From assembly GCF_058153355.1 (NCBI RefSeq), contig NZ_CM177019.1: DNA of 64,000 bases. One strand, 5' to 3'. Every line of letters begins with the position of its first letter. The stretch's first letter is position 1. Positions 1,680 through 53,339 of the stretch are shown piece by piece. Position numbers and translations under genes: made by a program. Under the pieces are notes generated by a model. That model had not been told where the DNA came from, searched no databases, and saw only the letters and a program-made list of their open reading frames with translations.

Positions 1680-2612
1680 ATGAGGAACGGAATGATGAAT
1701 AATAAAGTCAGCTTCACTAACAGCAATAATCCAACCATCTCTTTGTCTGCAGTGATCTATTTCCCTCCAAAATTTGATGAAACCCGTCAGTATCCGGCAA
1801 TTGTGGTATCTCACCCAGGTGGGGGCGTTAAAGAGCAAACGGCCGGAACCTATGCCGAAAAACTGGCGGAAAAGGGATTTGTCACTATTGCTTATGACGC
1901 ATCTTATCAAGGTGAAAGCGGCGGCGAGCCGCGTCAGTTAGAAAACCCATACATTCGTACTGAAGACGTCAGTGCCGTGATTGATTACCTGACAACGCTT
2001 TCTTATGTCGACAATACCCGAATTGGTGCGATGGGAATTTGTGCCGGTGCAGGATATACAGCCAATGCTGCAATTCAGGATCGCCGCATCAAGGCCATCG
2101 CTACCGTTAGTGCGGTCAATATTGGTTCGATGTTCCGTAATGGTTGGGAAAACAATGTGAAATCTATTGATGCCCTACCATACGTTGACGCGGGTTCAAA
2201 CGCCCGAACCAGCGATATTAGCAGCGGAGAATACGCCACTATGCCACTGGCACCAATGAAGGAGTCCGATGCGCCGAACGAAGAACTGCGTCAGGCCTGG
2301 GAGTATTACCACACCCCTCGCGCGCAGTATCCAACAGCACCGGGTTACGCTACTTTGCGCAGCCTTAACCAGATTATTACCTATGATGCTTACCATATGG
2401 CGGAAGTGTACCTGACTCAGCCGATACAGATTGTGGCGGGCAGCCAGGCAGGGAGCAAATGGATGAGTGACGACCTGTACGATCGAGCATCAAGCCAGGA
2501 TAAACGCTATCACATTGTTGAAGGCGCAAACCATATGGATCTTTATGACGGCAAAGTCTATGTGGCTGAATCAATTTCAGTATTAGCTCCGTTCTTTGAG
2601 GAAACTCTGTAA
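1680..2612 (+). CDS. Alpha/beta-hydrolase (dienelactone-hydrolase-like), ycjY-family, copy 1
   Basis: 310-aa ORF; paralogous to the next gene (shared FPPKFDE..QYPAI..AYDAS.QGESGGEPR..RIGxxGxCxGxGY blocks). True start may be one of the ATGs at 1692-1697 (AGGAA upstream). Stop TAA overlaps the next ATG (taATG at 2610-2614). Confidence 0.8.
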   Translation: MRNGMMNNKVSFTNSNNPTISLSAVIYFPPKFDETRQYPAIVVSHPGGGVKEQTAGTYAEKLAEKGFVTIAYDASYQGESGGEPRQLENPYIRTEDVSAVIDYLTTLSYVDNTRIGAMGICAGAGYTANAAIQDRRIKAIATVSAVNIGSMFRNGWENNVKSIDALPYVDAGSNARTSDISSGEYATMPLAPMKESDAPNEELRQAWEYYHTPRAQYPTAPGYATLRSLNQIITYDAYHMAEVYLTQPIQIVAGSQAGSKWMSDDLYDRASSQDKRYHIVEGANHMDLYDGKVYVAESISVLAPFFEETL

Positions 2613-3551
2613 TGAAACATATTCAAATCCGTAATAGTGATATGGCCTGGCATATTGCTGCCAATATTCAGTTTCCACCAAATTTTGATGAGTCAAAACA
2701 GTATCCGGCGATTATCAGCGTCCATCCTTTTGGCAGTTGTAAGGAGCAGACGTCTGGCAATATCTATGGCAAGGCATTGGCTGAAAAAGGCTATGTCGTT
2801 CTCGCTTATGACGCCAGTTTCCAGGGAGAATCTGGTGGGGAGCCTCGTTGGATAGAAGATCCGACACAGCGCGTAGAGGATATTAGCCGTGTTATCGATT
2901 ATGCAGTAACTCTGCCATATGTTGATGCTGAACGCATTGGCGTGCTGGGTGTGTGTGTGGGGGGGGGGGGGTGGCTATGCCATTAATGCCGCGCTGACAG
3001 AAAAACGAATTAAAGCTGTAGTGAGTATTACGGGTGTTAATATCGGGCGTCTTTTTCGGGAAGGTTTCAGCAATTACGATCCGATTGGCGCATTGAATGC
3101 AATGGCGTCGCAACGAACCAAAGAGGCTCGTGGTGGAGAATTACAGATCAACGAATTACTTCCCGCCAGCCTGGATGCAGCAAAAGCCCATGGACTGACC
3201 GAACGCGATGTTTATGAAGCAACTGACTACTATAAAACACCACGCGGGCAACAACCGGGAGGTGCGACAAAAATGTTGTTCTCACATGCACAGAAAACGC
3301 TGGCCTGGGATGCCTTCGCATTTACTGAAGTGTTACTGACTCAGCCGGTGATGGTAGTAGTTGGTGAAAAAGTCGGTGCCTTCGGTGCTTATCGTGATGG
3401 ACTGGAAGTCTATGGCCGGGCGATGGTTTCGCAGGATCGTCAGTTAGTTTCGTTACCCGATTTCTCACATTATGAACTGTATGACAAACCGGAAGCAGTT
3501 CAGGAGGCGCTGGAAAAAGTTATTCCTTTTTTCAACACCCATCTGGGATAA
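2612..3551 (+). pseudogene. Alpha/beta-hydrolase, ycjY-family, copy 2, interrupted by a +1 frameshift in a 13-G homopolymer (2959-2971)
   Basis: ORF track splits it into 2612..2986 (ends ...GVCVGGGGWLCH*) and 2919..3551 (reads ...WVCVWGGGGGYAINAAL...). Removing one G gives a continuous ~312-aa frame, GVCVGGGGGYAINAALTEKRIK, collinear with copy 1. Confidence 0.75.
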
Positions 3552-3556
3552 GTTTC

Positions 3557-4207
3557 ATGAGAAATATTATGAAAAAAGTACTCATTCTTGGTGCTGGCGG
3601 TCAGATAGCCCGCCATGTGATTAATCAACTGGCAGATAAACAAACCATTAAACAAACTTTATTTGCTCGTCAGCCAGCAAAAATACACAAACCCTATCCA
3701 ACTAATAGCCAGATTATTATGGGGGATGTACTGAATCATGCAGCACTGAAGCAGGCCATGCAGGGACAGGATATTGTGTATGCCAACCTTACGGGGGAAG
3801 ATTTAGATATTCAGGCAAATTCAGTGATCGCTGCGATGAAAGCCTGTGATGTTAAACGTCTGATCTTTGTTCTTTCCCTCGGCATTTATGATGAAGTTCC
3901 AGGAAAATTTGGCGAATGGAATAATGCAGTTATTGGTGAGCCCCTAAAACCATTCCGCAGGGCTGCGGATGCAATTGAGGCTTCTGGACTGGAATATACA
4001 ATTCTTCGCCCTGCCTGGCTGACTGATGAAGATATTATTGATTATGAGCTTACCTCACGCAATGAACCATTCAAAGGTACGATCGTATCACGTAAGAGTG
4101 TCGCAGCATTAATCACAGATATCATCGATAAACCTGAGAAACACATTGGTGAGAATATAGGCATCAATCAACCCGGGACTGATGGTGATAAGCCCTTCTT
4201 CATGTAA
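3557..4207 (+). CDS. NAD(P)-binding Rossmann-fold protein (NmrA/SDR-like); probably the intact form of the locus annotated ymjC in K-12
   Basis: 216-aa ORF with N-terminal KKVLILGAGGQIARHV glycine-rich dinucleotide-binding motif; position between ycjY and mpaA. Confidence 0.7.
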   Translation: MRNIMKKVLILGAGGQIARHVINQLADKQTIKQTLFARQPAKIHKPYPTNSQIIMGDVLNHAALKQAMQGQDIVYANLTGEDLDIQANSVIAAMKACDVKRLIFVLSLGIYDEVPGKFGEWNNAVIGEPLKPFRRAADAIEASGLEYTILRPAWLTDEDIIDYELTSRNEPFKGTIVSRKSVAALITDIIDKPEKHIGENIGINQPGTDGDKPFFM

Positions 4208-4225
4208 ATCAATTATATAGCTACC

Positions 4226-4257
4226 ATCGTACTGTACTATGTGCAGTACGATTTATT
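4226..4257 (+). terminator. Hairpin (atcgtactg / cagtacgat) followed by ttatt
   Basis: 9-bp inverted repeat with 9-nt loop starting 19 bp after the stop at 4207, followed by a T-rich run. Confidence 0.55.
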
Positions 4258-4371
4258 AAACTTATTAAGGTGAACTGATCAATCAGATGCGATTAACATG
4301 TGTAGAACCAGTAAGAATAAAATACGCCATGTATATAACATTACGACAATTCTAATATCTGCACATCAATG

Positions 4372-4408
4372 AAAATACAAACAACTTCCGGCAAAAAAGT
4401 GATACAAG
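4372..4408. repeat. Copy B of the imperfect ~35-bp direct repeat, upstream of mpaA
   Basis: See 376-410. Confidence 0.6.
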
Positions 4409-4497
4409 ATCGATAACATAGCGTTGAAGAAAAGGATTTGATAATCCGCAAAATTTGCACAACACTGCCTGTAATACTTCCTGAACCAGAGACGATT

Positions 4498-5226
4498 ATG
4501 ACCGTAACCCGCCCACGCGCCGAACGCGGCGCATTTCCGCCCGGAACAGAACATTACGGACGTTCATTATTGGGCGCGCCGTTAATCTGGTTTCCGGCCC
4601 CTGCAGCCAGTCGCGAAAGTGGTTTGATTCTGGCTGGCACTCACGGTGATGAAAACTCTTCGGTCGTCACGCTCTCCTGTGCTCTGCGGACTTTGACACC
4701 GTCTTTGCGCCGCCATCATGTAGTGCTGTGTGTGAATCCTGACGGCTGCCAGTTAGGGTTACGGGCCAATGCTAATGGTGTGGATTTAAACAGAAACTTT
4801 CCGGCGGCGAACTGGAAGGAGGGTGAAACGGTTTATCGCTGGAACAGCGCGGCTGAAGAACGTGATGTCGTATTACTGACAGGTGACAAACCTGGCTCCG
4901 AACCTGAAACCCAGGCGCTGTGCCAGCTTATACACCGCATTCAACCTGCCTGGGTGGTCTCATTCCACGATCCACTGGCCTGTATTGAAGATCCCAGACA
5001 CAGCGAATTAGGCGAATGGCTGGCCCAGGCGTTTGGATTGCCTCTGGTAACCAGCGTCGGTTATGAAACTCCTGGCTCTTTCGGCAGTTGGTGTGCGGAT
5101 CTCAACCTGCATTGCATCACCGCAGAGTTTCCACCTATCTCCTCCGACGAAGCCAGCGAAAAATACCTCTTTGCGATGGCTAACTTGCTGCGCTGGCATC
5201 CTAAAGATGCAATGCGCCCGTCGTGA
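4498..5226 (+). CDS. mpaA: Murein peptide amidase A (gamma-D-Glu-Dap amidase, zinc carboxypeptidase family)
   Basis: ORF 4438..5226; internal start MTVTRPRAERGAFPPGTEHYGRS... gives 242 aa matching E. coli MpaA; HGDE zinc-binding motif present. Confidence 0.9.
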   Translation: MTVTRPRAERGAFPPGTEHYGRSLLGAPLIWFPAPAASRESGLILAGTHGDENSSVVTLSCALRTLTPSLRRHHVVLCVNPDGCQLGLRANANGVDLNRNFPAANWKEGETVYRWNSAAEERDVVLLTGDKPGSEPETQALCQLIHRIQPAWVVSFHDPLACIEDPRHSELGEWLAQAFGLPLVTSVGYETPGSFGSWCADLNLHCITAEFPPISSDEASEKYLFAMANLLRWHPKDAMRPS

Positions 5227-6166
5227 ATTGAAGCGCTGGTTCCACATCTACCGCCAGCCAGGTCGGTCCGTCAAGATCAGCAAAACTGACCTGCGGCACC
5301 AGCGGTAAAGCGGCGCTAATGGCACGAGAGGTACACAACATGCAGCCCAGCATCAGACTGAAACCTTGTGCACGCGCTTCGGTCGCCAGCGCCAGCGCTT
5401 CCGTCAGGCCACCCGTTTTATCGAGCTTAATGTTAACCATCTCATAGCGCCCTTTCAGCGCCTTCAGATTGCTACGAGTATGACAACTTTCATCTGCACA
5501 AATCGGTAACGGATGAATAAAATTCTCCAGTGCCGCATCGTCCTGCGCAGGAAGCGGTTGTTCAAGCATCGCAACGCCTAAATCCGCCAATAGCTGGCAA
5601 CGCGCCGCCAACCCTTCTGCACGCCAGGATTCATTTGCATCAACGATTAGCGTCGCATCGGGTACAGCCGTGCGAATTGCTACCATCCGCTCACTGATAA
5701 GATGGTTATCCAGCTTCACTTTCAGTAATTTCGCGCCTGCCTGCCAGAGTGTTGATGCACTATTGGCCATCTGATCAGGCGTACCGATGACTACCGTCTG
5801 GGCAGTGGTGACTGTCTCGGGAAGCGTTATGCCGATCAAATCAGCCAGCGATTGCTGCTGTTTTCGCGCCGCCAGATCCCACAATGCACAATCCAGCGCA
5901 TTACGTGCTGCGCCGGCAGGGAGAATTTTTTGCAACTCCTCCCGTGTCAGCCCTTTCTCTAATTGCGGCACGACGCTCATAATTTGCGCCATTACCGAGG
6001 CATCACTTTCTCCATAACGCGGATACGGCGTGCATTCACCGGTGCCTTTAATACCTTCTTCTTCCAGTTCAACCACCACCACGCGCGCTTCACTACGACT
6101 TCCCCGAGCAATCACAAACGGGGTATGTAAGGGCCAGGCTTCCTCAAATACCTTAACGATTCTCAT
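5201..6166 (-). CDS. ycjG: L-Ala-D/L-Glu epimerase (enolase superfamily)
   Basis: ORF 5201..6208; start at MRIVKVFEEAWPLHTPFVIARGSR gives 321 aa; convergent with mpaA and overlapping its 3' end by 26 bp. Confidence 0.9.
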   Translation of the reverse strand: MRIVKVFEEAWPLHTPFVIARGSRSEARVVVVELEEEGIKGTGECTPYPRYGESDASVMAQIMSVVPQLEKGLTREELQKILPAGAARNALDCALWDLAARKQQQSLADLIGITLPETVTTAQTVVIGTPDQMANSASTLWQAGAKLLKVKLDNHLISERMVAIRTAVPDATLIVDANESWRAEGLAARCQLLADLGVAMLEQPLPAQDDAALENFIHPLPICADESCHTRSNLKALKGRYEMVNIKLDKTGGLTEALALATEARAQGFSLMLGCMLCTSRAISAALPLVPQVSFADLDGPTWLAVDVEPALQFTTGALHL

Positions 6167-6284
6167 CTTTACTCCTTGTTGTCGCGGTGGTCTGCGGATT
6201 AAGCGCAAATAGCGTTTGCTGTGTTATTGACAGTTAGCATAAACTAGGTGTGACGTTAACTATATGTAAACAGGAAAGATAATC

Positions 6285-6788
6285 ATGTCACAAACCGTTC
6301 ATTTCCAGGGCAACCCGGTTACAGTAGCCAATTCCATCCCGCTGGCGGGTAGCAAAGCGCAGACTTTTACTCTCGTGGCAAAAGATCTGTCTGACGTCAC
6401 CCTCGGTCAGTTTGCGGGTAAACGCAAAGTGCTGAACATTTTCCCGAGTATTGATACCGGTGTTTGCGCCGCATCAGTACGTAAGTTTAACCAACTGGCA
6501 ACTGAGATCGACAACACCGTTGTGCTGTGTATCTCTGCCGATCTGCCGTTCGCCCAGTCTCGTTTCTGCGGCGCAGAAGGTCTGAACAACGTTATCACCC
6601 TCTCCACTTTCCGTAACGCTGAATTCCTGCAAGCCTACGGTGTGGCAATTGCTGATGGCCCACTGAAAGGTCTGGCAGCGCGTGCCGTTGTGGTTATCGA
6701 TGAAAATGACAATGTGATTTTCAGCCAGCTGGTTGATGAAATCACCACCGAGCCGGATTACGAAGCAGCTCTTGCTGTACTGCGCTAA
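6285..6788 (+). CDS. tpx: Thiol peroxidase (atypical 2-Cys peroxiredoxin)
   Basis: 167-aa [38 protein letters not shown]...; recognised as E. coli Tpx. Confidence 0.95.
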
Positions 6789-6796
6789 ACAACTGT

Positions 6797-6835
6797 GCCG
6801 TTCACTGAATCACCACCGGTGAACGGCAGTTTTTG
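6797..6835 (+). terminator. Rho-independent terminator of tpx
   Basis: gccgttcac - 12-nt loop - gtgaacggc followed by agtttttga, 9 bp after the tpx stop. Confidence 0.75.
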
Positions 6836-6929
6836 ATCTACCAATCCCACTATTTTCCAGAGTTCCTGCCACTATTCCCCCTAACCGTTGTGCATTAAGA
6901 TTGTTCTTTGCCATTATTAGCCCAGCGGA

Positions 6930-8984
6930 GTGATGACTATTATGGATGATAAACAAATTACGGTCTGGCTTAAACACAATTGCTGTTCAACGGACATTCC
7001 TGCCATTGCCGAGGCACTAACGAACCATGCAGAATGGCTTTTAGAGCTAGCGCCAGATCCTATTGAACAAGGTAGTTCATGTTTACCGCCGACAGCTGCA
7101 GCCGGTATTTTTCTTGGCGCAGCGGCGATGGTTCACTGCGGCGAGGCTAGTGGTGCAGAAACCTGGCTCGAAGCAGCCATTACTGATTACCATTTCTTTA
7201 ATCCAAATGGATATAGTTCATGGAGAGGCAGTACGCCTGTTTTTACAGCATTATCGCGTTACCCGGCATTAAGAATGGTGTTATTTAACGCCGCTTGCGC
7301 AATGGAAGACTGGAATAAAGCATCCGCTGTTCTTGAATCGCTTTTCCATGCCGGCGATGTCCCGGAAGATAACCCTGTCGCCCCAAATTTTACCCCTTAT
7401 GCGCTGAAAGCGTTTATCGCGGATTACCACCCGTTAGGGCCTGCTTATTATGATGAAACCTGGTTGCTGGCAAAACAAGCGTGGTTAATTAATGCGGGCG
7501 TTCTGGATGAGCGAACCTGTAATACCTGGAAGCAATATACCCGCCACTTGCGCCATTTGATCCACAATACACAGTTTGCCGATGCGCTCTCTTTTGTACG
7601 CAGTAAAAAAGAACCGTTAAATCATATCCATACCTACTCAGACTTTTATCTGTATGCGATTGGTTTATTTTCTTATACTAGTCAGCTAAATGAAGCGCTG
7701 ACCTGGATAAAACAGTTAATCCACAACAATGATGGTCATTTCTGTGATCTTTTCGTTTCAACTGGCAAAGAGCGCCGAATAAAGCCTGAACTTAGTACCT
7801 TGCTGAATAATCTCTTGCACAGCGCAGAGTTTCAGGCGTTGCAGGATAAATATCTCACCGTCGGACATGATGTTGTGTATTCTGGTCCCTTCATGTCACT
7901 TTATGAAAAGGTTCTTGGCGGTAAGTCCCGAAAGCGCTGCGCGATTAGTCGAAAATTAATCTCGCCCGGCGAAGCGGTTTATGAATATCGTCAGCTGGAT
8001 AGTGTGGAATATATTGCAGCAAAAGCGGCCTTTCAGACATCTGAGCTAAATAATATCGCCCACCGGCATCATAATGATAGTTATCAGTGGCATGAATTTG
8101 CTGCCCAATGGCCTCGTCGGGGTTCACTTTCTCACCCAGATATTGCCCGTTATTTGTTTGAGCGCCAGGAAGGAAAATGCTTTGATGCCGCAGAGTTTAT
8201 ACAACTGATTGCGGAACCGTTTGTCTTTCCGATGCGTTTCATATGGGTTGCCGGGTTGTCCTTTGAATTACATCAGTATCCGGATGCCTATTTCGTAAAT
8301 GACAATATGGCGGGTGAATTTGTTAATCTCTGCTGGATGGCTATGAAATGCGGACATGCTGGAGACATTTTCAAACAACTGGCCCACGAGCCGCATGACG
8401 TTGCTGACCCTATTTACGCCATGCTCGCCACGTTTGACCGCGCTGATTGCCGTAGCGCCGCCGCCGCGCACTTTGGACAACCGGAACTACCGGAAATAAT
8501 GGCACTGGCTTTCAGTTCGAGGTTATCGCTGGACAGCGTCCTTACCATCGCTGAGTTTGGTAAAAATCAGCCGCGATTTTCACATGCGCTAGCAACGGCC
8601 CTCCTGCGTTACAACCTGCACATCTACTCAAACTATATGCCGCAGGTTAACTGGTTCCTTCAGGGGCTGGAACACTATGCTTTGGCAAAAGGCGGTCAAC
8701 TTTTAAATTTCTTTGTGCATATTCCAGAACAAATTCCCGTTCTGGCGACCATGCTGGAACATGGCGTATTAGTGCGTGGGATCGGTGAAGGTGCCTACGA
8801 TGGTTATGATAATTCAGCAAATTCATTTCATCATGCCGCCGTGATGCACTGCCTCACGCACGCGCCGGAAAAAGTCCGCTACTGGATGGAAACACCCTGG
8901 ATTCAGAACTATTTAGTGAATGCGCCGCTGCGTCAAACGGCGCGCCATGTGGAAGCCTGGCATAAAAAGTTTGGCATCAAATGA
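6930..8984 (+). CDS. Orphan 684-aa ORF of unknown function; predicted cytoplasmic, aromatic- and His-rich, no motif I can assign
   Basis: Uninterrupted 2055-nt ORF; GGAG at 6922-6925 just upstream of ATGs at 6930/6933/6942; no signal peptide or TM segment evident; no canonical Walker A (only a near-miss LGGKSRK); sits between tpx and tyrR where K-12 has only a short spacer. Confidence 0.75.
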   Translation: MMTIMDDKQITVWLKHNCCSTDIPAIAEALTNHAEWLLELAPDPIEQGSSCLPPTAAAGIFLGAAAMVHCGEASGAETWLEAAITDYHFFNPNGYSSWRGSTPVFTALSRYPALRMVLFNAACAMEDWNKASAVLESLFHAGDVPEDNPVAPNFTPYALKAFIADYHPLGPAYYDETWLLAKQAWLINAGVLDERTCNTWKQYTRHLRHLIHNTQFADALSFVRSKKEPLNHIHTYSDFYLYAIGLFSYTSQLNEALTWIKQLIHNNDGHFCDLFVSTGKERRIKPELSTLLNNLLHSAEFQALQDKYLTVGHDVVYSGPFMSLYEKVLGGKSRKRCAISRKLISPGEAVYEYRQLDSVEYIAAKAAFQTSELNNIAHRHHNDSYQWHEFAAQWPRRGSLSHPDIARYLFERQEGKCFDAAEFIQLIAEPFVFPMRFIWVAGLSFELHQYPDAYFVNDNMAGEFVNLCWMAMKCGHAGDIFKQLAHEPHDVADPIYAMLATFDRADCRSAAAAHFGQPELPEIMALAFSSRLSLDSVLTIAEFGKNQPRFSHALATALLRYNLHIYSNYMPQVNWFLQGLEHYALAKGGQLLNFFVHIPEQIPVLATMLEHGVLVRGIGEGAYDGYDNSANSFHHAAVMHCLTHAPEKVRYWMETPWIQNYLVNAPLRQTARHVEAWHKKFGIK

Positions 8985-8992
8985 ACGTTGCC

Positions 8993-9013
8993 GCTGCGCC
9001 TGAACGGCGCAGC
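8993..9013. terminator. Short GC hairpin (gctgcgcc-tgaac-ggcgcagc) between the convergent orphan ORF and tyrR
   Basis: 8-bp stem, 5-nt loop; no U-run on either strand, so at best a weak or bidirectional pause/terminator. Confidence 0.4.
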
Positions 9014-9021
9014 CAGCACAA

Positions 9022-10563
9022 TCACTCTTCGCTTTTCTTCTGGTTTAAGCCATATTCCCGCAACTTATTGGCAATCGCGGTATGCGAAACGCCGAGACGT
9101 TTTGCCAGTTTGCGCGTGCTGGGATAATTGCGATAAAGCTGAGTTAATACCGAGCGTTCAAAACGGCTGGTAATTTCGTCCAGCGAACCTTCCATCGCAT
9201 CTTCGCCCACGGCTACCGTTGCGGCGTCATAATCCGGCAACAAAATATCCTGAGGACGCAGCTCATAGCCGTCCAGTTGTGTCAGTGCGCGATAGATAGC
9301 GTTCTTTAACTGCCGCACATTTCCCGGCCACGCATAACGCGTAAGTACAGTATTCAGGTCAGCGGCCAGTTTCGGACGCGGCACGCCCTGCTCGTCGGCA
9401 AAGCGAGCGACGAACAGTTCAGTTAACGGCATGATGTCCTGCGGACAGTCACGTAACGGCGGCAGATTGAGCGTCAACACGTTCAGACGATAATAGAGAT
9501 CTTCACGGAACACGCCTTTTTGCACCAGTTCGACCAAATTCTTCTGCGTAGCGCAAATAACCCTTACATCGACATGCACTTCATGATCTTCACCAACTCG
9601 ACGGAAAGTACCATCATTAAGGAAACGCAGTAATTTCGCCTGCATCCTTGGCGACATCTCGCCTATCTCATCTAACAGCACCGAACCACCGTTCGCCTGC
9701 TCAAAGAACCCTTTTTTACCTTCCGGAGCATGACCAAACAGTTCACTCTCGACCGCATCTTCCGGTATAGACGCGCAGTTCAGCGCCAGGTAAGGTTTGC
9801 CCGCTCGTGGGCTTGCCTGATGGCAGGCGTAGGCAAAGAGATCTTTACCTGTACCGGTGTCACCCGTAATCAGCAACGGCGCGCTTAGCATCGCCAGTTT
9901 CTGCGCCTGTTCGACAACATGCTTCATTTTCGGGCTGACGGCGACAATTTGACTGAAGGCACTGACGTCCTGTGCAGCGACATTCTGCAACTGACGGCCC
10001 ATACGAATCGTCGAGCGCAACATCACCACCGCACCGGTCAGAACGTGTTGATCATTTTCATCCTGAAGATAAACAGGCGTAATCTCCATCAGGAAATTCT
10101 GCCCATTAATAACGACATGCTCGTTATGCGAGTCTTGCGGTTCGCTTTCCAGCCAGCGTAAAAAATTAAAGCCGTTAATTAATTGCGCGGCGGTATGGTT
10201 GCGCAGGCGATCCAATTTTTGCCCAAAAAGCTGACAGCTCGCCGGGTTCGCCATATCCACTTTGCTTTTCATATCAACAGAAAGCACAGGTTCAGGCAAC
10301 GCCTCCAGTAACGCGCTCAACGCCAGATGCTCACGTTCGGAAGGCATCCACGGGACAGTACGCACATCGGTAACACCTGCAATACGGCGTATTTCGGCCA
10401 TCAGACTGCTGAAGCTCTCAAACTCCAGTTCAGCAAAATTGAGGTAGATTCGCCCAATGGGGTCAATCTCAATACCGCGTAAATCAATGCCTCTCAGCAC
10501 CAGTAAATCGAGTAATTCGCGGGTCAGACCAAGTCGGTCTTCACAAAAGACTTCCAGACGCAT
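9022..10563 (-). CDS. tyrR: Transcriptional regulator TyrR (sigma-54-interaction-type AAA+ domain, C-terminal HTH)
   Basis: ORF 9022..10590; start at MRLEVFCEDRLGLTRELLDLL gives 513 aa; GDTGTGKD Walker A and C-terminal HTH present; recognised as E. coli TyrR. Confidence 0.95.
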   Translation of the reverse strand: MRLEVFCEDRLGLTRELLDLLVLRGIDLRGIEIDPIGRIYLNFAELEFESFSSLMAEIRRIAGVTDVRTVPWMPSEREHLALSALLEALPEPVLSVDMKSKVDMANPASCQLFGQKLDRLRNHTAAQLINGFNFLRWLESEPQDSHNEHVVINGQNFLMEITPVYLQDENDQHVLTGAVVMLRSTIRMGRQLQNVAAQDVSAFSQIVAVSPKMKHVVEQAQKLAMLSAPLLITGDTGTGKDLFAYACHQASPRAGKPYLALNCASIPEDAVESELFGHAPEGKKGFFEQANGGSVLLDEIGEMSPRMQAKLLRFLNDGTFRRVGEDHEVHVDVRVICATQKNLVELVQKGVFREDLYYRLNVLTLNLPPLRDCPQDIMPLTELFVARFADEQGVPRPKLAADLNTVLTRYAWPGNVRQLKNAIYRALTQLDGYELRPQDILLPDYDAATVAVGEDAMEGSLDEITSRFERSVLTQLYRNYPSTRKLAKRLGVSHTAIANKLREYGLNQKKSEE

Positions 10564-11772: not shown

Positions 11773-13166
11773 CGCAATTTATCTCCTATTAAAAATTCCA
11801 GCGCAGCATCAAGGCGAATATGCGGCAACGGTTTGTCGACATCCATCACCTGCGGGCGAAACGCCTCAAACTGGAAGCCTTGCTTATCCCAGAACGCCTG
11901 GCCAGGCAAACGTGCGGGAACTTCGCCAGGATACACAGTGAGCGGTGCGCCATCGCTGAGTCGATTACCGCGCAGCGCCGGGATTTTCTCACCGTTAACA
12001 TCAATAATGCCGCTGGTGGTCGCCTGAACTGACGCCAGCCCCAGGCAGTCCATGCTGATCCCTTCGAACGCCGCATTTTGCCAGGCATCCTGAATCAGTT
12101 GTTGCAGTAATGAAACCATATTGGCGTGCTGATCGATGGTCACATGATCCGCTTTAGTGGCAGCAAACAATAGCTTATCGATAACCGGCGAAAACAAGCG
12201 CCGGAACAAGGTACGCTGCCCGTAGTGGAAGCTTTGCATCAGCTGCGTCAGCGCCAGACGCATATCATTGAATGCTTGTGGTCCACTGTTGAGAGGTTGC
12301 AGGCAATCCACCAGCACAATCTGCCGATCAAAGCGCAGAAAATGATTTTTATAGAACCCCTTCACCACTTTCTCGCAGTAATAATTAAACCGTTCGCGCA
12401 GCATTCCGGCATTGGTGTGCTTGTCGGCCTGTGCAAGTTTTGATTCGCCCCAGGCATCGACATCTGGCCACGGGAAGAATTGCAGCGCGGGCGCACCTGC
12501 CATATCGCCCGGCAAGACAAAACGCCCAGGCTGAATAAAGTGCAGCCCCTGCTGTTTGCAGTGGTGGAGATAATCGGTCCATGCGGCAGCAATGTCTGCA
12601 AGACGGTTTTCGTCGGCAGGTGCTAGTGGGTCCAGCCCTTCGCACATCATTCGCCATTTTGCCGACCATTCGCCGCGCTGACCATTGAGTAAGCCTGTCA
12701 TCTGGCGCGACCAGCTTAAATAGTCCTGCGCCAACATCGGCAAGTCGAGTAACCATTCGCCAGGATAATCCACTATCTCCAGATACAACGTGGAAGTGTC
12801 TTTGAAGTGACGCAACAGCGAATCGTTCGATTTATAGCGTAGCGCCAGGCGAATCTCACTGACGCCGCGTGTTGGGGTCGGCCAGGCGGGAGGATCGCCA
12901 TATAACTGCGCCAGCCCTTCATCGTAGGTGAAGCGCGGAATGCCAAAGTCACGCTGGGGAATGCGTTTTACGCCCAGCAGGCGCTCTTCACGCACCGCAC
13001 TTAATAGCGGCAAGCGTGCTCCGGCATGAATATTGAGCAACTGATTGACCATCGCAGTGATAAACGCGGTTTTGCCGCTGCGGCTAAGTCCGGTTACAGC
13101 GAGGCGCAGATGTCTGTCGACACCCCGATTCACCAGCGCATTAAGTTCATTTTTAAGTCGCTTCAT
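11769..13166 (-). CDS. ycjX: Conserved P-loop NTPase YcjX
   Basis: ORF 11769..13253; start at [35 protein letters not shown] gives 465 aa with Walker A GLSRSGKT. Confidence 0.9.
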
Positions 13167-13310
13167 TGCTGTCCTGTGGACCAGAAAAAAATCATTCGTA
13201 AGGATATGAATGTGGGGGCCATGCCCTTGATTATCAACTGCCCGTGTTGTCATCTTGAGGCGAACTCCATAAGATGTGCAGCATTCACGTTCGGACGGAG
13301 TTCCTGACCT

Positions 13311-14309
13311 ATGTCCCCTACTATTTATGATATTGCCAGGGTTGCCGGCGTATCAAAATCCACCGTATCACGCGTGCTGAATAAGCAAACCAATATCTCC
13401 CCGGAAGCGCGCGAAAAAGTGTTACGGGCCATTGAAGAATTACAGTATCAGCCAAATAAACTGGCCCGCGCGCTGACCTCTTCGGGCTTTGATGCCATTA
13501 TGGTGATTTCTACCCGCTCGACCAAAACTACGGCGGGTAACCCGTTTTTCTCCGAAGTTTTGCATGCCATTACCGCCAAAGCGGAAGATGAGGGTTTCGA
13601 CGTGATATTGCAGACGTCGCACAACCCAGCTGAAGACTTACAAAAATGTGAAAGCAAAATTAAGCAGAAAATGATTAAAGGCATTATTATGCTAAGTTCG
13701 CCAGCAGATGAGTCTTTTTTCGCCCAACTCGATAAATACGATATTCCGGTGGTAGTAATTGGCAAAGTTGAAGGTGAATATGCCCATGTTTATTCTGTCG
13801 ATACCGATAATTTTGGCGACAGTATTGCGCTGACCGATGCGCTAATTGAAAGTGGACATAAAAATATTGCCTGCCTACATGCTCCGCTTGATGTCCATGT
13901 TTCGGTTGACCGCGTTAATGGTTATAAGCAAAGTCTGGAAGATCATAATATTGCAGTGCGCAATGAGTGGATCGTTGACGGTGGTTATACCCATGAGACA
14001 GCACTACAAGCCGCGCGGGAATTATTAAGCCAGTCACCGTTGCCTGAGGCAGTGTTTGCTACTGACAGCCTGAAATTAATGAGCATTTATCGTGCGGCGG
14101 CAGAGAAAAACATTGCTATTCCGCAGCAGTTAGCGGTGGTGGGTTATAGTAATGAAACGCTGTCGTTTATATTAACGCCTGCACCGGGCGGCATCGATGT
14201 TCCGACGCAGGAGTTAGGTCAACAAAGCTGCGAGTTATTATTCCGCTTAATTGCCGGAAAACCGTCACCACAAAATATTACCGTTGCCACGCATATGTCG
14301 TTGAAATAA
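13311..14309 (+). CDS. ycjW: LacI-family transcriptional repressor YcjW
   Basis: 332-aa ORF with N-terminal HTH ([22 protein letters not shown]) and periplasmic-binding-protein-like effector domain. Confidence 0.9.
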
Positions 14310-45325: not shown

Positions 45326-45368
45326 GCACCTCATCCTGACAGGCCCCCCCCCTCAGGATGAGGTGTTC
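45326..45368. terminator. Bidirectional hairpin between the convergent sapF and MFS genes, with a C10 homopolymer in the loop
   Basis: cacctcatcctga - caggcccccccccc - tcaggatgaggtg; 13-bp perfect stem. Confidence 0.6.
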
Positions 45369-45369
45369 A

Positions 45370-46533
45370 TTACTTTTGATTGTCGATTCTGGTGAGAGCA
45401 ACCAGCAATGCCAGCGTATAACACACCGTAATTGCCAGACTCATTTTTAACAGTGTTTCTCCGCCAATTCCCGACAATGGCGCGGCTATACCGCCGAAGA
45501 CAAACATGCTCATCCCCATCAACGCAGACGCCGTTCCAGATTCCTGCGTCCCTACTGCACTCATAGCCTCTGCCCCGCCAACAGTGCCGATGCCGCTACA
45601 AAATGCGATGGTGAAAAATAATGCCACCAGTGCCGGAATGGGCAATTGTACCCATGCGCATAAGACCGTGAGCAATGCACACAAAATTGCCGCTATCAGG
45701 CCACCTCGCAACAATGTCATCGCGTTAATCCGTCGCGCCAGGCGCGAGAAGATCCATGAAGCAATGATAAGTCCGATGCCGTTAAGGCCAAACACCAGGC
45801 TAAATTGCATTGGACTAAAGCCAAATTCCTTCTGCAACACGAACGACGAAGAGCCGATATACGCAAACAAACCGGCCAGCATAAAACTTTGAATCAGGCA
45901 AAAGCGCATAAAAAGGCGGTTCTGCACCACGCTTCGTCCGGTTAATAGCAATGATGAGCCCCTTTTATTTTCTGGCAAGGTCTCATTAATAAATAACAGG
46001 CAGCCCAGCAACAGTACGGTGCTAATTTCAGCCATTACCCAGAATAAAGTGCGCCAGTCAAAAGTGCTAACAATGTACCCGCCCAGCACTGGCGACAACA
46101 CCGGTGCCAGGCCATTCACCGTCATTAACAGCGCAAAAAACTGGGTCAACGTTACTCCCTGATATTTGTCACGAGCAATAGAACGAGAGAGCACCGAACC
46201 ACCCGCCCCCGCGATCCCTTGAATAAAACGCCAGACCACCAGCCAGTAAATATTGTTCGTTGTCGCGCACAAAATGGAAGAAACAATAAACAATAGCAAC
46301 GACAAGATTAACGGACGTTTACGCCCTATTTTGTCGCTCAGAGGGCCAAATAACAGTTGTCCGACGCCAAGACCGATCAGTGATGCAGTCAGGGTTAATT
46401 GCGTTATGGTCGTGGTTGCCGCCAGTTGCTCAGACATCTCCGGCAAAGCCGGCAAATAAAGATCGGTACACATCGGGCCGATACCGGCTAAAAGACCAAG
46501 AATCAATGCCCATGAAAGAGAGACTCTAGCCAT
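45370..46533 (-). CDS. MFS transporter, 12-TM drug:H+ antiporter type (Bcr/CflA-like)
   Basis: 387-aa hydrophobic ORF with MFS signature region GPLSDKIGRKRP; last gene of a co-directional efflux cluster. Confidence 0.8.
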   Translation of the reverse strand: MARVSLSWALILGLLAGIGPMCTDLYLPALPEMSEQLAATTTITQLTLTASLIGLGVGQLLFGPLSDKIGRKRPLILSLLLFIVSSILCATTNNIYWLVVWRFIQGIAGAGGSVLSRSIARDKYQGVTLTQFFALLMTVNGLAPVLSPVLGGYIVSTFDWRTLFWVMAEISTVLLLGCLLFINETLPENKRGSSLLLTGRSVVQNRLFMRFCLIQSFMLAGLFAYIGSSSFVLQKEFGFSPMQFSLVFGLNGIGLIIASWIFSRLARRINAMTLLRGGLIAAILCALLTVLCAWVQLPIPALVALFFTIAFCSGIGTVGGAEAMSAVGTQESGTASALMGMSMFVFGGIAAPLSGIGGETLLKMSLAITVCYTLALLVALTRIDNQK

Positions 46534-46541
46534 ATTATTCC

Positions 46542-47915
46542 TTACTTGAGTGATGACATGCCGCCGCCCAGCGACTGCCAGAGCGTGATTCGGTTTGTAA
46601 AATCAGTCAGTTGCAGTGCCAGCAGCTCCTGCTGTGCGCTCCACAAGCTGCGCTGCGCCGTCAACACGGTCAGGTAATCACCAACACCCGCCTGATAGCG
46701 ACGCAAGCCAACATCGACCGTTTGTTGCTCAGCTTTAACATACTGGCGCTGTGCATCCAGTTGCTCTTCAAGCGTGGTCCGCCGCGCCAGTGCGTTAGCG
46801 ACATCTTTAAATGCGCTCTGAACGGTTTTTTCATAGGTGGCAATGAGCCCACGCTTTTGTGCTTCTGCGTAACGAAGCTGCGCCAGATTACTTCCGCCAG
46901 TGAACAGCGGTAATGTGACCGATGGTGCAAATGACCAGATCTGCATTCCGTGGCTGAACAACGACGACAATGCGTCACTGCCCACACCGGCACTGGCAGT
47001 CAGCGAAATCGTCGGGAAAAAGTTAGCCCGCGCCGCGCCAATATCTGCATTGGCGCTCTTCAAATTATGTTCCGCTTCCTGGATATCCGGGCGACGCAGC
47101 AGAACATCAGATGATACTCCCGCAGGAACCAGACTTATCATTTGTTCCGGCAGGCTTTCCAGTGTTCCCGGTAGCAGATTTTCCGCAAGCGTTGTACCTG
47201 CCAGTAAGTTCAGCGCATTTTTATCCTGCATCACTTGTGTCTGATAGCTGGCAACGCTGGCGCGCGCTTGCTGATAAACACTCATCGCCTCACTGACATC
47301 TGTCGCTGCCGCCGTGCCAACCTGTTGCTGGCGCTGGATAATTTTCAATGAGTTTTCTGCACTGGCCATCGTTTCTTTTGCCAGGGCCAGGTTGCTGTTA
47401 TCGGCCGCCAGTGTCAGCCAGGCGGTGCTGATTTCAGCAATCAGCGTTAAACGAGTGTTCTGGGCTGTAAATTCACTGGCAAGCCAGGTTTCCCGCGCCG
47501 CCCGAGATAAACTCTGATTACGACCAAACAGATCTAACGTATAACTGGACACCGTGCCGTCAGCCTCGGCAGTTGTTCCCGTACCATTCGCCAGCGAACG
47601 ACTGCGAGTCGAACTTAAGGCCGCATTCACCGTCGGAAATAACGACGCATTAGTTTGCCCATAGAGCGCCCGTGCTGAGTCAATATCAGCAATCGCTTTT
47701 TGCACATCGCGGTTACTGTTCAGTGCAATGGTTACTACCTGCTGCAATCGGGGATCGTGAATCACCTGCTGCCAGTCATGGCTGATTGCCTTCCCCTGGC
47801 CCTGTGCTCCCGGCAAGGTCGCCGGGATTGGGGATTCAGGCGTACTGTAGTGAGGATCGAGCGAGACACATCCCGCACTCAACAACACCAGAAAAATAAG
47901 AGAACGACGCAACAT
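46542..47915 (-). CDS. Outer-membrane efflux lipoprotein (NodT/OprM family)
   Basis: 457-aa ORF with lipobox (LLSAGCVSL) and OEP-type repeats. Confidence 0.85.
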   Translation of the reverse strand: MLRRSLIFLVLLSAGCVSLDPHYSTPESPIPATLPGAQGQGKAISHDWQQVIHDPRLQQVVTIALNSNRDVQKAIADIDSARALYGQTNASLFPTVNAALSSTRSRSLANGTGTTAEADGTVSSYTLDLFGRNQSLSRAARETWLASEFTAQNTRLTLIAEISTAWLTLAADNSNLALAKETMASAENSLKIIQRQQQVGTAAATDVSEAMSVYQQARASVASYQTQVMQDKNALNLLAGTTLAENLLPGTLESLPEQMISLVPAGVSSDVLLRRPDIQEAEHNLKSANADIGAARANFFPTISLTASAGVGSDALSSLFSHGMQIWSFAPSVTLPLFTGGSNLAQLRYAEAQKRGLIATYEKTVQSAFKDVANALARRTTLEEQLDAQRQYVKAEQQTVDVGLRRYQAGVGDYLTVLTAQRSLWSAQQELLALQLTDFTNRITLWQSLGGGMSSLK

Positions 47916-47918
47916 AAC

Positions 47919-50900
47919 TTACTCCTGACGGCGCGGTTTACCGGCAAACAAACGTTTCACCAGTACAAAAAACAGAGGAACGAAGAAAATGGCCAGTAAT
48001 GTAGCGGTCAGCGTGCCGCCAATAATGCCCGTACCAATGGCGATGCGGCTGTTCGCCCCTGCACCGGTTGCTATCGCCAGCGGCATTACCCCCGCAATAA
48101 ACGCCAGCGAGGTCATGATGATTGGGCGTAAACGAGTCTGCGCCGCGCGTAATGCCGCACGACTCAAGGAATAACCCTCTGCAACCGCCGCTTCAGCAAA
48201 TTCCACAATCAGAATGGCGTTTTTCGACGACAAGCCGATAGTAGTTAATAGCGCTACCTGGAAGTAAACGTCGTTGTTTAAATCACGCATCCAGGCCGCC
48301 AGCGCCGCGCCAAGAAGCCCCAGAGGGATCACCAGAATGACCGAGAACGGGACTGACCAGCTTTCGTACAGTGCTGCAAGGCAGAGGAAAACCACCAGAA
48401 TAGAAACTGCATACAGACTTAATGCCTGACCGCTCGCCAGTTTCTCCTGCAATGACAAACCACTCCAGGCCCAGGTTGTTCCCGCAGGAAGACTGTTTGC
48501 CAGTTCCTCCATTTTTGTCATTGCATCGCCGGAACTAAAGCCAGTCGCGTTTTCGCCCTGAATTTCATAGGCTGCCGAGCCGTTGTAGCGCACCAGTCTT
48601 TCCGGTCCATACTGCCAGCGGGTGGTCGCAAAAGCAGAGAATGGTGTCATGGCGTTATCGCTACCGCGCACAAACCATTTACCTAAGTCTGACGGCGCAG
48701 AACGAAATTCGCTGTCGCCCTGAATGTAGACTTTTTTCACACGACCACGGTCAATAAAGTCATTCACATAAGTACCGCCCCACGCACTGGACAGGGTGTC
48801 GGTGACATCATTCAAACTCAACCCTAATGACACCGCTTTATTGCTATCAATATCTACCTGCAATTGCGGCATTTGTGGCAAATCATTGGCGCGTACAGAA
48901 TGTAACTCCGGACTTTGATTCGCTTTTTCTATCAACTGATTACGCATTTGCAGCAGTGTTTCACGATCGGTTCCACCGTTAGCTAACAATTCAAACGTAA
49001 AACCATTGCTTTGGCCCAGCCCATCAACGGCTGGCGGCGTCATCGCAAATACCGTCGCATCACGAATTGTGCCCAGCTCTTTGGTAGCCCGTAGGGCGAT
49101 AGCCTGGGCGGTGTTTTCTGCCCCTTTACGTTGAGACCAGTTTTTCAACGAAACAAACGCCATCCCGGTGTTCTGTCCGCTGCCGCTAAAACTGAAACCA
49201 TCAACGGTAAAAATGACATCGGTATTTGCTTTCTCGTTAATCAGGAACCAGTCAACAATCTGGCGATTCACTTCTGCTGTACGGGCAGCGGTCGCCCCGG
49301 CCGGCAGCGTGTACTGCACCATGATTTCGCCCTGGTCTTCAGTGGGTAAGAAACTGCCCGGCAGTTTCCACATCATCAGGGCCATTCCACCACCCAGCAC
49401 GACATAAAGCCCCATCGTTCGGGCTGCACGGCGCAGGACATAAATTACGCCTCGCTGATATTTATCTTCAGTACGGCGGTAAAAGCGGTTAAATGCGCCG
49501 AAAAAGCCTTTTTTATGTGGCGGAACATGCTGGAGGACGGAACCGCACAGGGCGGGAGTCAAGGTCAATGCCACCACCACGGAAAGCAGCATTGCGGAGA
49601 TGATGGTGATGGAGAACTGACGATAAATTACGCCCGTAGATCCCCCAAAGAAGGCCATCGGCAGGAATACGGCTGACAACACCAGCGCAATGGCAACCAG
49701 TGCGCCAGAAATCTCGCCCATTGATTTTTCCGTGGCTTCACGCGCGGGCAACCCTTCGTCACGCATAATGCGTTCGACGTTCTCCACCACCACAATGGCA
49801 TCGTCCACCAGCAAGCCGATCGCCAGCACCATTGCAAACAACGTCAGGGTATTAATCGAATAGCCAAACAACGCAAGAACGCCGAATGTGCCCAGCCAAA
49901 CGACGGGGACAGCTAACGCCGGAATCAGTGTGGCACGCAGGTTTTGCAGGAATAAATACATCACGCAAACCACCAATACGATGGCTTCAAACAGCGTCTG
50001 AATTACGTCCTCTACGGAGATTTTAATAAATTCAGTGCTGTCTTTCGGGTATGCGATGTCGTATCCCTGCGGCATGTTCCGCTGGAATTCGGCAATCTTA
50101 TCCTTGACCAGCGTCGCCGTATTCAGCGCATTCGCACCGGGCGAAAGCATTACAGCAACCCCGGCAGACGGGTGACCGTTAAGTTTGCCGATAGCGGTAT
50201 AATCTTCACTGCCCATCTCAACGCGAGCCACATCTTTTATACGAACAACTGCGCCGTCTGACTGGCTTTTCACGATAATATTTTTGAACTGATCCACCGT
50301 CTGCAAGCGAGACTGCGCACGTACCGTTGCGGTCAGTTGCTGAGTATCCGGTGAAGGCAATGCCCCTATTTTCCCGGCAGTAACCTGCACGTTTTGCGCT
50401 TCAATAGCACTTTGCACGTCTGAAGGCATCAGCGAGTAAGACGCCAGTTTGGCCGGGTCGAGCCAGATGCGCATAGCGTATTCCGCGCCAAAGACTTGCA
50501 GACTCCCCACACCTTCAACACGCGCCAGGGGGTCCTGAACGTTACTGACCAGCCAGTCGGCGATATCCGAACTGGAGGCTTTGTCAGTGGTGTCATACAC
50601 GGCAGCAATCAGCAAAAAGTTGCTTTGTGATTTCTCCACCGTAACACCCGTTTGCTGCACTTCGCTGGGTAGGCGCGACTCCGCCTGCTGAATTTTATTC
50701 TGCACCTGAACCTGTGCAGTATCTGGATCGGTACCTTGTTCAAAGGTCACATTAATACTGACCGAACCATCAGAGCTACTGGTTGAGCTGAAATAGAGTA
50801 AATTATCAAGCCCAGTGAGTTGTTGCTCGATAACCTGAGTCACGCTGTTCTCCAGCGTTTCGGCAGAAGCACCAGTATAAGTGGCTGAAATTTTAATGGT

Positions 50901-51026
50901 CGGCGGTGCAACGTCAGGATATTGCGCGACGGGTAATGTGCGAATAGCCAGAATCCCCGCCAACATAATCAAAATGGCGATAACCCAGGCAAAGACCGGG
51001 CGGCGAACAAAAAAGCGCGAAAACAT
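47919..51026 (-). CDS. RND multidrug efflux permease (AcrB/HAE1 family)
   Basis: 1035-aa ORF MFSRFFVRRPVFAWVIAILIMLAGILAI...; size and N-terminus typical of AcrB-like pumps. Confidence 0.9.
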   Translation of the reverse strand: MFSRFFVRRPVFAWVIAILIMLAGILAIRTLPVAQYPDVAPPTIKISATYTGASAETLENSVTQVIEQQLTGLDNLLYFSSTSSSDGSVSINVTFEQGTDPDTAQVQVQNKIQQAESRLPSEVQQTGVTVEKSQSNFLLIAAVYDTTDKASSSDIADWLVSNVQDPLARVEGVGSLQVFGAEYAMRIWLDPAKLASYSLMPSDVQSAIEAQNVQVTAGKIGALPSPDTQQLTATVRAQSRLQTVDQFKNIIVKSQSDGAVVRIKDVARVEMGSEDYTAIGKLNGHPSAGVAVMLSPGANALNTATLVKDKIAEFQRNMPQGYDIAYPKDSTEFIKISVEDVIQTLFEAIVLVVCVMYLFLQNLRATLIPALAVPVVWLGTFGVLALFGYSINTLTLFAMVLAIGLLVDDAIVVVENVERIMRDEGLPAREATEKSMGEISGALVAIALVLSAVFLPMAFFGGSTGVIYRQFSITIISAMLLSVVVALTLTPALCGSVLQHVPPHKKGFFGAFNRFYRRTEDKYQRGVIYVLRRAARTMGLYVVLGGGMALMMWKLPGSFLPTEDQGEIMVQYTLPAGATAARTAEVNRQIVDWFLINEKANTDVIFTVDGFSFSGSGQNTGMAFVSLKNWSQRKGAENTAQAIALRATKELGTIRDATVFAMTPPAVDGLGQSNGFTFELLANGGTDRETLLQMRNQLIEKANQSPELHSVRANDLPQMPQLQVDIDSNKAVSLGLSLNDVTDTLSSAWGGTYVNDFIDRGRVKKVYIQGDSEFRSAPSDLGKWFVRGSDNAMTPFSAFATTRWQYGPERLVRYNGSAAYEIQGENATGFSSGDAMTKMEELANSLPAGTTWAWSGLSLQEKLASGQALSLYAVSILVVFLCLAALYESWSVPFSVILVIPLGLLGAALAAWMRDLNNDVYFQVALLTTIGLSSKNAILIVEFAEAAVAEGYSLSRAALRAAQTRLRPIIMTSLAFIAGVMPLAIATGAGANSRIAIGTGIIGGTLTATLLAIFFVPLFFVLVKRLFAGKPRRQE

Positions 51027-52147: not shown

Positions 52148-52174
52148 TATTTTCTCCAGGGTGAGAAATACCCT

Positions 52175-52275
52175 CCTCATTGAAATTAATGAGGATATGT
52201 CAGGGATATTCAGTTATAACGAACCCGCATCGCGAAATGAATTTCGCAATGAAATAAGGGGGATTAATATCCCCC
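52175..52275. promoter_or_regulatory. Cluster of three inverted repeats between the TetR gene and the MFP gene (candidate operators / pump promoter)
   Basis: tcctcatt-gaaatt-aatgagga (52174-52195), gcgaaat-ga-atttcgc (52232-52247), ggggga-ttaata-tccccc (52258-52275). Confidence 0.5.
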
Positions 52276-52295
52276 GCTATTGGTTAATTCTGTTC

Positions 52296-52862: not shown

Positions 52863-52888
52863 TTCTGTCTCCTGGCCTATCACTTGGT

Positions 52889-52904
52889 GAGAATGATCAT
52901 TCTC
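52889..52904. promoter_or_regulatory. 16-bp perfect palindrome gagaatgatcattctc upstream of the TetR gene (candidate autoregulatory operator)
   Basis: Perfect dyad seen directly, 27 bp upstream of the preferred TetR start. Confidence 0.5.
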
Positions 52905-53339
52905 ATTTTTGCTAATTATACGTTTCTCCAAAGTAATGGAAAGTATTTTTATCTTATTCATGGTGCATATTCTGATAATGAAGAGATTGTGGAGATTCTG
53001 TGAAGATAGTTGACAATATTAAGTTGGGGTCAATTCATCAGAAAGGCAGCGACTTGTTGTCGCCAGTTCTGTTTTCATCATCAAACTTATCGGAGCTAAT
53101 ACGAATAGTTTCATAGTCAGATTCTATAAGATATTTCCCCAACCTACCCCTTGCAGGCGTCAAGAGTAGATAACGCAAAATGCTCTGTACCGCAGCTTCT
53201 CTCCGGTACAGAAAGCGCAACTATAGCCACCCACAGCCAGGTTGATTATAATAACCGTTTATCTGTTCGTACTGTTTACTAAAACGACGAATCGCCTGAT
53301 TTTCAGGCACAACAAGCATCAACAATAAGGATTAAAGCT

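Follow-up and report, generated by a model that had tools for sequence, protein, structure and literature searches.

Heterogeneous collections of immunity genes, termed 'polyimmunity loci', were described by Zhang et al. (2012; PMC3482391), along with immunity domains that are fused to ankyrin or TPR repeats. DUF3396 proteins have been shown by experiment to be immunity proteins for VRR-Nuc effectors of type VI secretion systems (T6SS; PMC9635880), and the yegQ locus has been proposed to hold islets of orphan immunity genes of the T6SS and contact-dependent inhibition (CDI) kinds (Barretto & Fowler 2020; PMC7400221). The gene considered here has relatives that keep much the same company. It lies at 6942–8984 on the + strand of a 64,000-nucleotide stretch of contig NZ_CM177019.1 (RefSeq assembly GCF_058153355.1)—'the window', from here on—where it stands by itself between the convergent core genes tpx and tyrR, and it specifies a protein of 680 amino acids (aa). 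The family to which this protein belongs is undescribed: it has no models, no names and no literature, and every source calls its members 'hypothetical protein'. The arrangements in which the relatives occur match, on analysis, the polyimmunity loci, and they point to interbacterial toxin immunity, a category that a preliminary description of the window, made from the DNA alone, did not name. We put at roughly 0.4 the probability that the orphan gene encodes a cytoplasmic, non-catalytic, orphan immunity-type binding protein.

The orphan gene evolves as protein-coding sequence, under selection that is purifying but relaxed, and it has been diverging for about as long as its surroundings. A single stop-free frame, 6930–8984, fills the gap between tpx and tyrR, as the preliminary description had it; the chance that 680 codons remain free of stops is (61/64)^680, or ~1e-14, and so an open frame of 2 kb is far beyond coincidence. 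That description took the product to be 684 aa long, which corresponds to an in-frame GTG at 6930. The frame stands, but the start codon is most likely the ATG at 6942, giving 680 codons plus stop, judging from the RefSeq start in H1 and H17 and from the loss of another upstream ATG, at 6933, in the diverged allele of strain A34. The exact window protein is on record from Escherichia coli as EGO8351536.1 ('hypothetical protein') and HFG3508032.1. The gene was said to be richer in A and T than the core genes beside it, and it is: GC is 47.3% overall and 45.5% at third codon positions (GC3), versus 51–57% and 52–59%, respectively, in five flanking genes. Compared with the 94%-identity allele of A34, dN/dS is 0.27 (dS 0.153), and compared with a 99%-identity allele (E200086) it is 0.31 (dS 0.023). 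The corresponding values between the window and A34 are 0.009 (dS 0.18) for tyrR, and 0.036 (dS 0.075) for tpx.

Searches with the protein reach a small and scattered set of relatives. Pfam, NCBIfam, PADLOC, PHROGs and the sequences of the PDB contain no match to it, which bears out the earlier impression of a gene without assignable motif or domain. A word-indexed search of 5.8 billion proteins returned only eight clusters, from E. coli, Salmonella and a few other enterobacterial assemblies; an exhaustive search of 1.84 billion representatives returned 91 clusters (50% identity), 36 of them below 1e-30. Conservation is centred on residues 315–676, and the N-termini are variable. The Salmonella orthologue, P0005, is 56% identical to the window protein and occurs in many serovars; intact orthologues are widespread among these, one variant being present on 743 contigs. 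Foldseek comparison with the AlphaFold database (AFDB) brings up uncharacterized relatives only, from Rhizobium, Azorhizobium, Pigmentiphaga, Saltatorellus, Desulfovibrio, Listeria, Rikenella and Leptospira. Two AFDB relatives are labelled DUF4034; the Pfam model of that name (PF13226) matches neither the window protein nor any of the 54 members of the family alignment, and we found no paper on DUF4034, or on an insertion between tpx and tyrR. No member of the family turned up in 50,697 phage records or in viral contigs, and a search of plasmids produced a single occurrence, in Sinorhizobium.

What suggests a function for these proteins is the identity of their neighbours. We inspected about 20 loci of homologues; the 54-member alignment proved too diverse for the locus search, and a closer alignment of 14 members was used, instead. 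In Salmonella, P0005 occupies an AT-rich islet between yegQ and a gene for a 703-aa DUF4034 protein, in which it is accompanied by a TsiV/DUF3396 gene and fragments of IS1. At a second Salmonella locus (L030, DUF2526/ydcZ), two intact paralogues of 688 aa and 678 aa stand in tandem (1932–6073), the shorter of them 49% identical to the window protein, and a TsiV gene follows. At the same DUF2526/ydcZ location in another enterobacterium (L011), a frameshifted copy, in halves of 358 aa and 344 aa, precedes an intact one (3305–5415). In further enterobacteria, the homologue lies in an island downstream of hrpA, where it is followed by a protein with a Tli4_C domain, small lipoproteins, an ankyrin-repeat lipoprotein and three secreted paralogues; this island and the Salmonella islet have one gene in common, at 60% identity. 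On Sinorhizobium plasmid pBSY16_2, the homologue is found among two SMI1/KNR4 (SUKH) genes, two DUF1963 genes and one DUF3396 gene, and other loci in Rhizobiales have DUF1963, or homologues of the pBSY16_2 island genes, nearby. A Tsi3/DKNYY array precedes the gene for a distant member of 541 aa by ~3 kb, both being on one strand. In all, immunity genes are neighbours at about six or seven of the ~20 loci; the gene in the window is itself solitary.

Several of these places have further features. Beside the Salmonella islet (L004, 13838–17878, – strand) is an operon for a 400-aa protein, a DUF1266 protein and the 703-aa DUF4034 protein (STM2135-like); hhalign gives a probability of 0.3% for the family versus this DUF4034 protein, indicating no relation. 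The arrays of three paralogues downstream of the homologue in the hrpA-proximal island (L009, 15321–17971; L027, 10148–12287) specify proteins of ~280 aa that have signal peptides and motifs like those of YD/Rhs repeats, for which Pfam gives only a faint match to RHS_repeat. Two family members have ankyrin repeats in place of the TPR-like domain described below, and one of these (L018, 7845–12142) comes directly after a 675-aa protein with RCC1/WD40 repeats. The L018 contig belongs to an assembly of >270,000 contigs, possibly from a symbiont or a host-associated bacterium.

An AlphaFold model of the window protein, built with the 54-sequence alignment, is confident (mean predicted local distance difference test, pLDDT, 88.8; predicted template-modelling score, pTM, 0.90) and falls into three parts. 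Residues 1–305 (6942–7856, + strand) form a TPR-like domain of helical repeats; this is the part that varies across the family, and its repeats give no match to the TPR models of Pfam. A small beta subdomain follows, about residues 317–375 (7890–8066, +), recognizable both in the model and by its motif, LGGKxRKRC-xx-S-xxx-I-xPGE-x-VY-x-YR. The remainder, residues 376–680 (8067–8981, +), is a helical domain of ~300 residues that makes up the conserved core of the family, has no counterpart in Pfam or among the solved structures of the PDB, and includes the motif Y557-x-L-H560-L-Y562-S563-N…W571, as well as Y622 and W648. The 40 best-conserved columns of residues 306–680, among 52 sequences, consist of glycine, proline, aromatic and aliphatic residues together with C333, H560, S563, K328, R350, R504 and R527; no Asp or Glu is among them, and nowhere in the family alignment did we recognize conserved residues that look catalytic. 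No signal peptide was noted in the window protein. Two motifs that had been singled out for comment did not survive the alignment. LGGKSRK, regarded as a near-miss Walker A, opens the conserved beta subdomain (LGGKSRKRC, a beta-hairpin motif), and the histidine clusters thought to be potential metal ligands are unconserved: HRHHNDSYQWH (about residues 383–393) lies in a variable segment, in which the pLDDT of residues 391–394 falls below 50.

The beta subdomain calls for a word of its own. When hhalign sets the subdomain against Zn1/Zn2 of PARP-1, the family motif (K/R)-x-C-x2-S/T-x3-I-x2-G-x2-V-Y-x-R aligns in register with the C-x2-C-x3-I-x-K-G of PARP fingers, but with a probability below 8%, which is without significance and for which reason we grade the resemblance as weak. 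Of the four zinc ligands, the window protein keeps C333 alone; the second is Ser and the His/Cys is replaced by Ala. P0088 and P0091, which are among the most distant members, are alone in having the full CxxC…HxxC set, and Pfam matches neither these nor a 993-aa extended member. The subdomain might thus be likened to a PARP-type zinc finger minus its zinc site, a weak resemblance rather than membership in the family.

In E. coli, the gene is rare. The segment that carries it is present in 32 of 5,426 complete genomes (0.6%)—always in the chromosome, always between tpx and tyrR, always alone and always annotated 'hypothetical protein'—and 5,382 of the 5,426 have the contiguous tpx–tyrR junction of K-12. 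The gene is an accessory one, then, and not core, as the preliminary description supposed; the 'intergenic hotspot' of that description fares less well, for the site is either empty or occupied by this one gene, with no alternative cargo, and is therefore essentially biallelic. The 32 copies divide into two allele groups, 16 being 95–99% identical to the window and 16 being 90–95% identical. At least eight are split, or interrupted by IS600, and in at least 22 genomes, from both groups, the 2-kb frame is intact. The core genes of the window are at most 98.6% identical to those of any complete genome in the collection. A pattern-based scan of ~100,000 species-representative genomes found four loci only, in Rhizobiales and Reyranella, and none in enterobacteria. 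That collection should include Salmonella and the other species of Escherichia, and we infer from this that the gene is missing from their representative genomes. We read the orphan gene as acquired and not ancestral. The converse, an ancestral gene that was lost everywhere else, we considered and rejected: the species scan gave only the four non-enterobacterial loci, GC3 falls short of the values in the flanking genes, and homologues are found at different chromosomal or plasmid positions.

How might such a protein work? The family, small and patchy as it is, travels in the company of immunity genes that are orphans of contact-dependent toxin systems (T6SS, Rhs, CDI), and it has the habits of an immunity gene: sporadic distribution, relaxed purifying selection, decaying copies, tandem divergent paralogues, no noted signal peptide and none of the best-conserved columns of residues 306–680 being Asp or Glu. 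Low frequency, relaxed constraint and frequent decay are typical of immunity genes. What we infer for the gene in the window is that it confers immunity, that its product acts by binding and that it was acquired by the route discussed below. The protein would stay in the cytoplasm and bind a toxin domain injected by a competitor, the surface of its repeats serving as the binding platform, and the toxin would be blocked by occlusion of its active site, or of the site at which it binds its substrate.

A good deal can be said against this. At more than half of the loci the gene stands by itself in housekeeping surroundings—the window, an insertion at malM/ubiC, and several metagenomic and rhizobial loci. 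A position just downstream of the gene for its cognate toxin is the defining signature of an immunity gene; none of the ~20 loci has, immediately upstream, a gene recognizable as that of a toxin or of an Rhs, PAAR, VgrG or CdiA protein, and no cognate toxin was found for the family. At 680 residues, the protein is two to five times the size of a typical immunity protein, and its three-domain architecture has been kept from alpha- to gamma-proteobacteria. The conserved His/Tyr/Ser/Arg motif YxLHLYSN could be an active site, or a ligand-binding site, that went unrecognized. The sharing of islands with immunity genes, finally, is circumstantial.

Such objections lend some weight to an altogether different kind of role. 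The gene could be an ordinary accessory gene with a cellular function unconnected to conflict, its product a scaffold, an adaptor, a regulator or an enzyme that uses the pocket of YxLHLYSN, W571 and Y622. Many homologues are indeed solitary among housekeeping genes, the three-domain architecture is confidently modelled and conserved across phyla, and the best-conserved polar residues are H560, Y562, S563, R350, R504 and R527. Repeated, phylogenetically independent co-location with immunity genes speaks against it, as do the tandem divergent paralogues, the frequent pseudogenization and the extreme patchiness (0.6% of E. coli; four loci in ~100,000 representative genomes), and we regard a role of this kind as unlikely, if the least unlikely of the alternatives. 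Further from probable is a reading in which the family makes up a novel class of conflict proteins, large, multi-domain and cytoplasmic, each acting by itself, and in which the conserved C-terminal module, a degenerate PARP-type finger plus the helical domain, would have a function so far described for no immunity or defence protein. Such a module would, for example, sense or sequester a nucleic-acid-targeting toxin by mimicry of its substrate, or reverse the damage enzymatically by means of the His/Tyr/Ser pocket.

It is also rather improbable, in our estimation, that we are looking at a relic: a gene that was useful once, but is functionless in E. coli now, and is drifting and being lost lineage by lineage. 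Its dN/dS exceeds that of the flanks about tenfold, the split and IS600-interrupted copies (at least 8 of 32) are what decay would produce, and a scan for sigma-70-like promoters found none in the interval from the tpx terminator to the start codon. (The terminator pattern used in the promoter scan missed the tpx hairpin itself, owing to its long loop.) Against this, the frame is intact in at least 22 genomes and in two allele groups that are separated by a dS of 0.15, dN/dS is well below 1, and intact orthologues are widespread in Salmonella serovars, with that one variant on 743 contigs.

The preliminary description named single-gene anti-phage defence as one possibility. In a protein built as modelled here, the sensor of a phage protein would be the TPR-like domain, and the effector the C-terminal one. 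TPR-like sensor domains do occur in some defence proteins, the gene is a rare, single, accessory one without a known domain, and one homologue is situated 5–10 kb from a type I restriction-modification system, the only defence genes met with at the ~20 loci. Little else encourages the idea, which we think very unlikely. PADLOC reported no family at E-values up to 1, and PHROGs none; no effector fold, be it NTPase, nuclease, TIR, SIR2 or another, is present; phage records do not contain the family; the site carries no alternative cargo in 5,426 genomes; and the neighbours of the homologues are immunity or housekeeping genes and not defence islands. We prefer immunity to toxins over defence against phages because the relatives sit among orphan immunity genes: TsiV/DUF3396, Tli4-like, Tsi3, SMI1/KNR4 and DUF1963. 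Least credible of all is a secreted effector or toxin, such as T6SS cargo or an effector directed at a host, which has in its favour the occurrence of the gene in T6SS-related islets, and of ankyrin-fused members beside an RCC1-repeat protein in a bacterium presumed to be a symbiont or host-associated, but which lacks an adjacent immunity partner where the gene is solitary, a PAAR, VgrG, MIX or Rhs delivery marker and any catalytic signature, and which, as a lone toxin between two core genes, should be counter-selected.

tpx, the gene for thiol peroxidase (6285–6788, + strand), and tyrR (9022–10563, – strand) are 2,233 bp apart in the window versus 43 bp in K-12 MG1655, much as the preliminary description had it for the tiny K-12 spacer. 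In a blastn comparison with K-12, the alignment breaks at 6782 and resumes at 9024; the segment without a K-12 counterpart, 6783–9023, stands in for the 43-bp spacer, the last two codons of tpx and the stop codon of tyrR. K-12 homology ends within those two tpx codons, where the C-terminus changes from …AVLKA* to …AVLR*, and at the tyrR stop codon, which is TAA in K-12 and TGA in the window. The K-12 spacer amounts to a single bidirectional hairpin of 16 bp, and the junction alignments indicate that it was replaced in its entirety and not interrupted. The hairpin that follows tpx in the window (6796–6834, + strand) is likely an intrinsic terminator, with a 12-bp stem (6796–6807/6817–6828) and a run of five U residues (6830–6834); its fold energy is –20.6 kcal/mol (z –4.25). 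It had been described as the tpx terminator 'still present', and a hairpin with a U-run is there, sure enough, but it is not that of K-12: it is part of the inserted segment, without similarity to the K-12 spacer. At the other end, the short GC-rich hairpin reported 3′ of the frame is found at 8993–9013, with the stop codon of the orphan gene on one side and that of tyrR on the other; its 8-bp stem folds with –19.7 and –24.5 kcal/mol on the two strands, and on neither is there a U-run. Rfam has no match in 6200–9300.

As to how the gene arrived, there is neither an insertion sequence (IS), nor an integrase gene, nor a direct-repeat scar at the insert, in agreement with the preliminary description on the first two counts. 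The non-coding ends (6789–6941 and 8985–9021) match no other homologue locus, only the coding region being common between loci, and hence there are no conserved mobile-element ends. The last ~100 bp of tyrR differ from K-12 at 8 positions per 100, and the next 400 bp at 2 per 100, a rise in divergence consistent with the segment having passed from one lineage to another through homologous recombination in its flanks. As mobility genes and conserved ends are both lacking, this is probably how the gene would have come to lie between tpx and tyrR. A 12-nucleotide inverted match (11 of 12; 6793–6804 versus 9001–9012) falls exactly at the two ends of the insert, each half within a terminal hairpin. 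With 24 such pairs in the region, its occurrence does not exceed chance; its placement is nonetheless suggestive.

The window departs from K-12 in other places, as well. Between sapF and fabI, ycjD is replaced by a 7.9-kb segment (45327–53189) that is absent from K-12; its genes, all on the – strand, specify a TetR-family regulator, an RND efflux adaptor, an RND permease, a NodT-type outer-membrane factor and a Bcr/CflA-type MFS transporter. Of what lies in 2612–4207, K-12 retains no more than two fragments, ymjC and ymjD; in the window there are an intact gene for a 216-aa, NAD-dependent, SDR-like protein (3557–4207), and a second ycjY-like alpha/beta-hydrolase that is divided between two open reading frames (2612–2986 and 2919–3551), probably by a frameshift. 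Across 9024–34632 the window is 94.7% identical to K-12 overall, making this an unusually polymorphic neighbourhood, and in ycjX and the ycjX–ycjW intergenic region (12,700–14,000) there are patches with 10–17 mismatches per 100 bp.

Should the orphan gene prove to be an immunity gene, then an immunity-type family has gone uncatalogued in Pfam, NCBIfam and PADLOC alike—a new family in a known and heterogeneous class. It would take in a gene carried by 0.6% of E. coli, together with Salmonella orthologues in an islet for which protection of typhoidal and other serovars from competitors has been proposed; a class of mostly small proteins would gain a large, three-domain architecture, and the family would furnish a lead to a toxin that acts in the cytoplasm. 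The C-terminal domain, as modelled, is a fold without a solved relative. Should we be wrong about immunity, what remains is a well-delimited and easily clonable orphan, with a confident model and a clean presence/absence polymorphism.

It remains to set the family beside systems that are already known. With single-gene defence proteins that have TPR-like sensors it shares the condition of a single accessory gene and an N-terminal domain of helical repeats; unlike them, it has neither an NTPase nor an effector domain, is matched by nothing in PADLOC and does not occur in the context of defence islands. From zf-PARP (PF00645) the window protein differs in having C333 only of the four ligands and no Pfam match, and nothing about it indicates binding to DNA nicks. 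The likeness to Salmonella's yegQ-locus islets (SAIDI-1, 'Paratyphi C islet'; Barretto & Fowler 2020) is direct, in that P0005 occupies an islet at that same locus, whereas the E. coli gene is alone and at another. The supplements of that study have no entry that matches the 688-aa gene, and none for SPC1575–1577. TsiV/DUF3396 (PF11876), whose proteins confer immunity in the cytoplasm, bears no similarity to the family in sequence or fold, is less than half its size, and has proven cognate effectors (TseV, VRR-Nuc; PMC9635880), of which none was found for the family. Yet at three independent loci a family gene has DUF3396 for a neighbour less than 8 kb away, and the two have in common orphan copies, tandem divergent paralogues and no noted signal peptide. 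Comparable, too, are the helical-repeat immunity proteins (Imm-Ank, HEAT-repeat and TPR/ankyrin-fused Imm67/68; Zhang et al. 2012). The family has an additional conserved C-terminal module of ~360 residues that is unmatched by Pfam, its Imm families included, and which those proteins do not have; but in the all-alpha repeat scaffold of the model, the lack of conserved catalytic residues, the residence in heterogeneous immunity arrays and the exchange of TPR-like for ankyrin repeats at the N-terminus, the two are alike.

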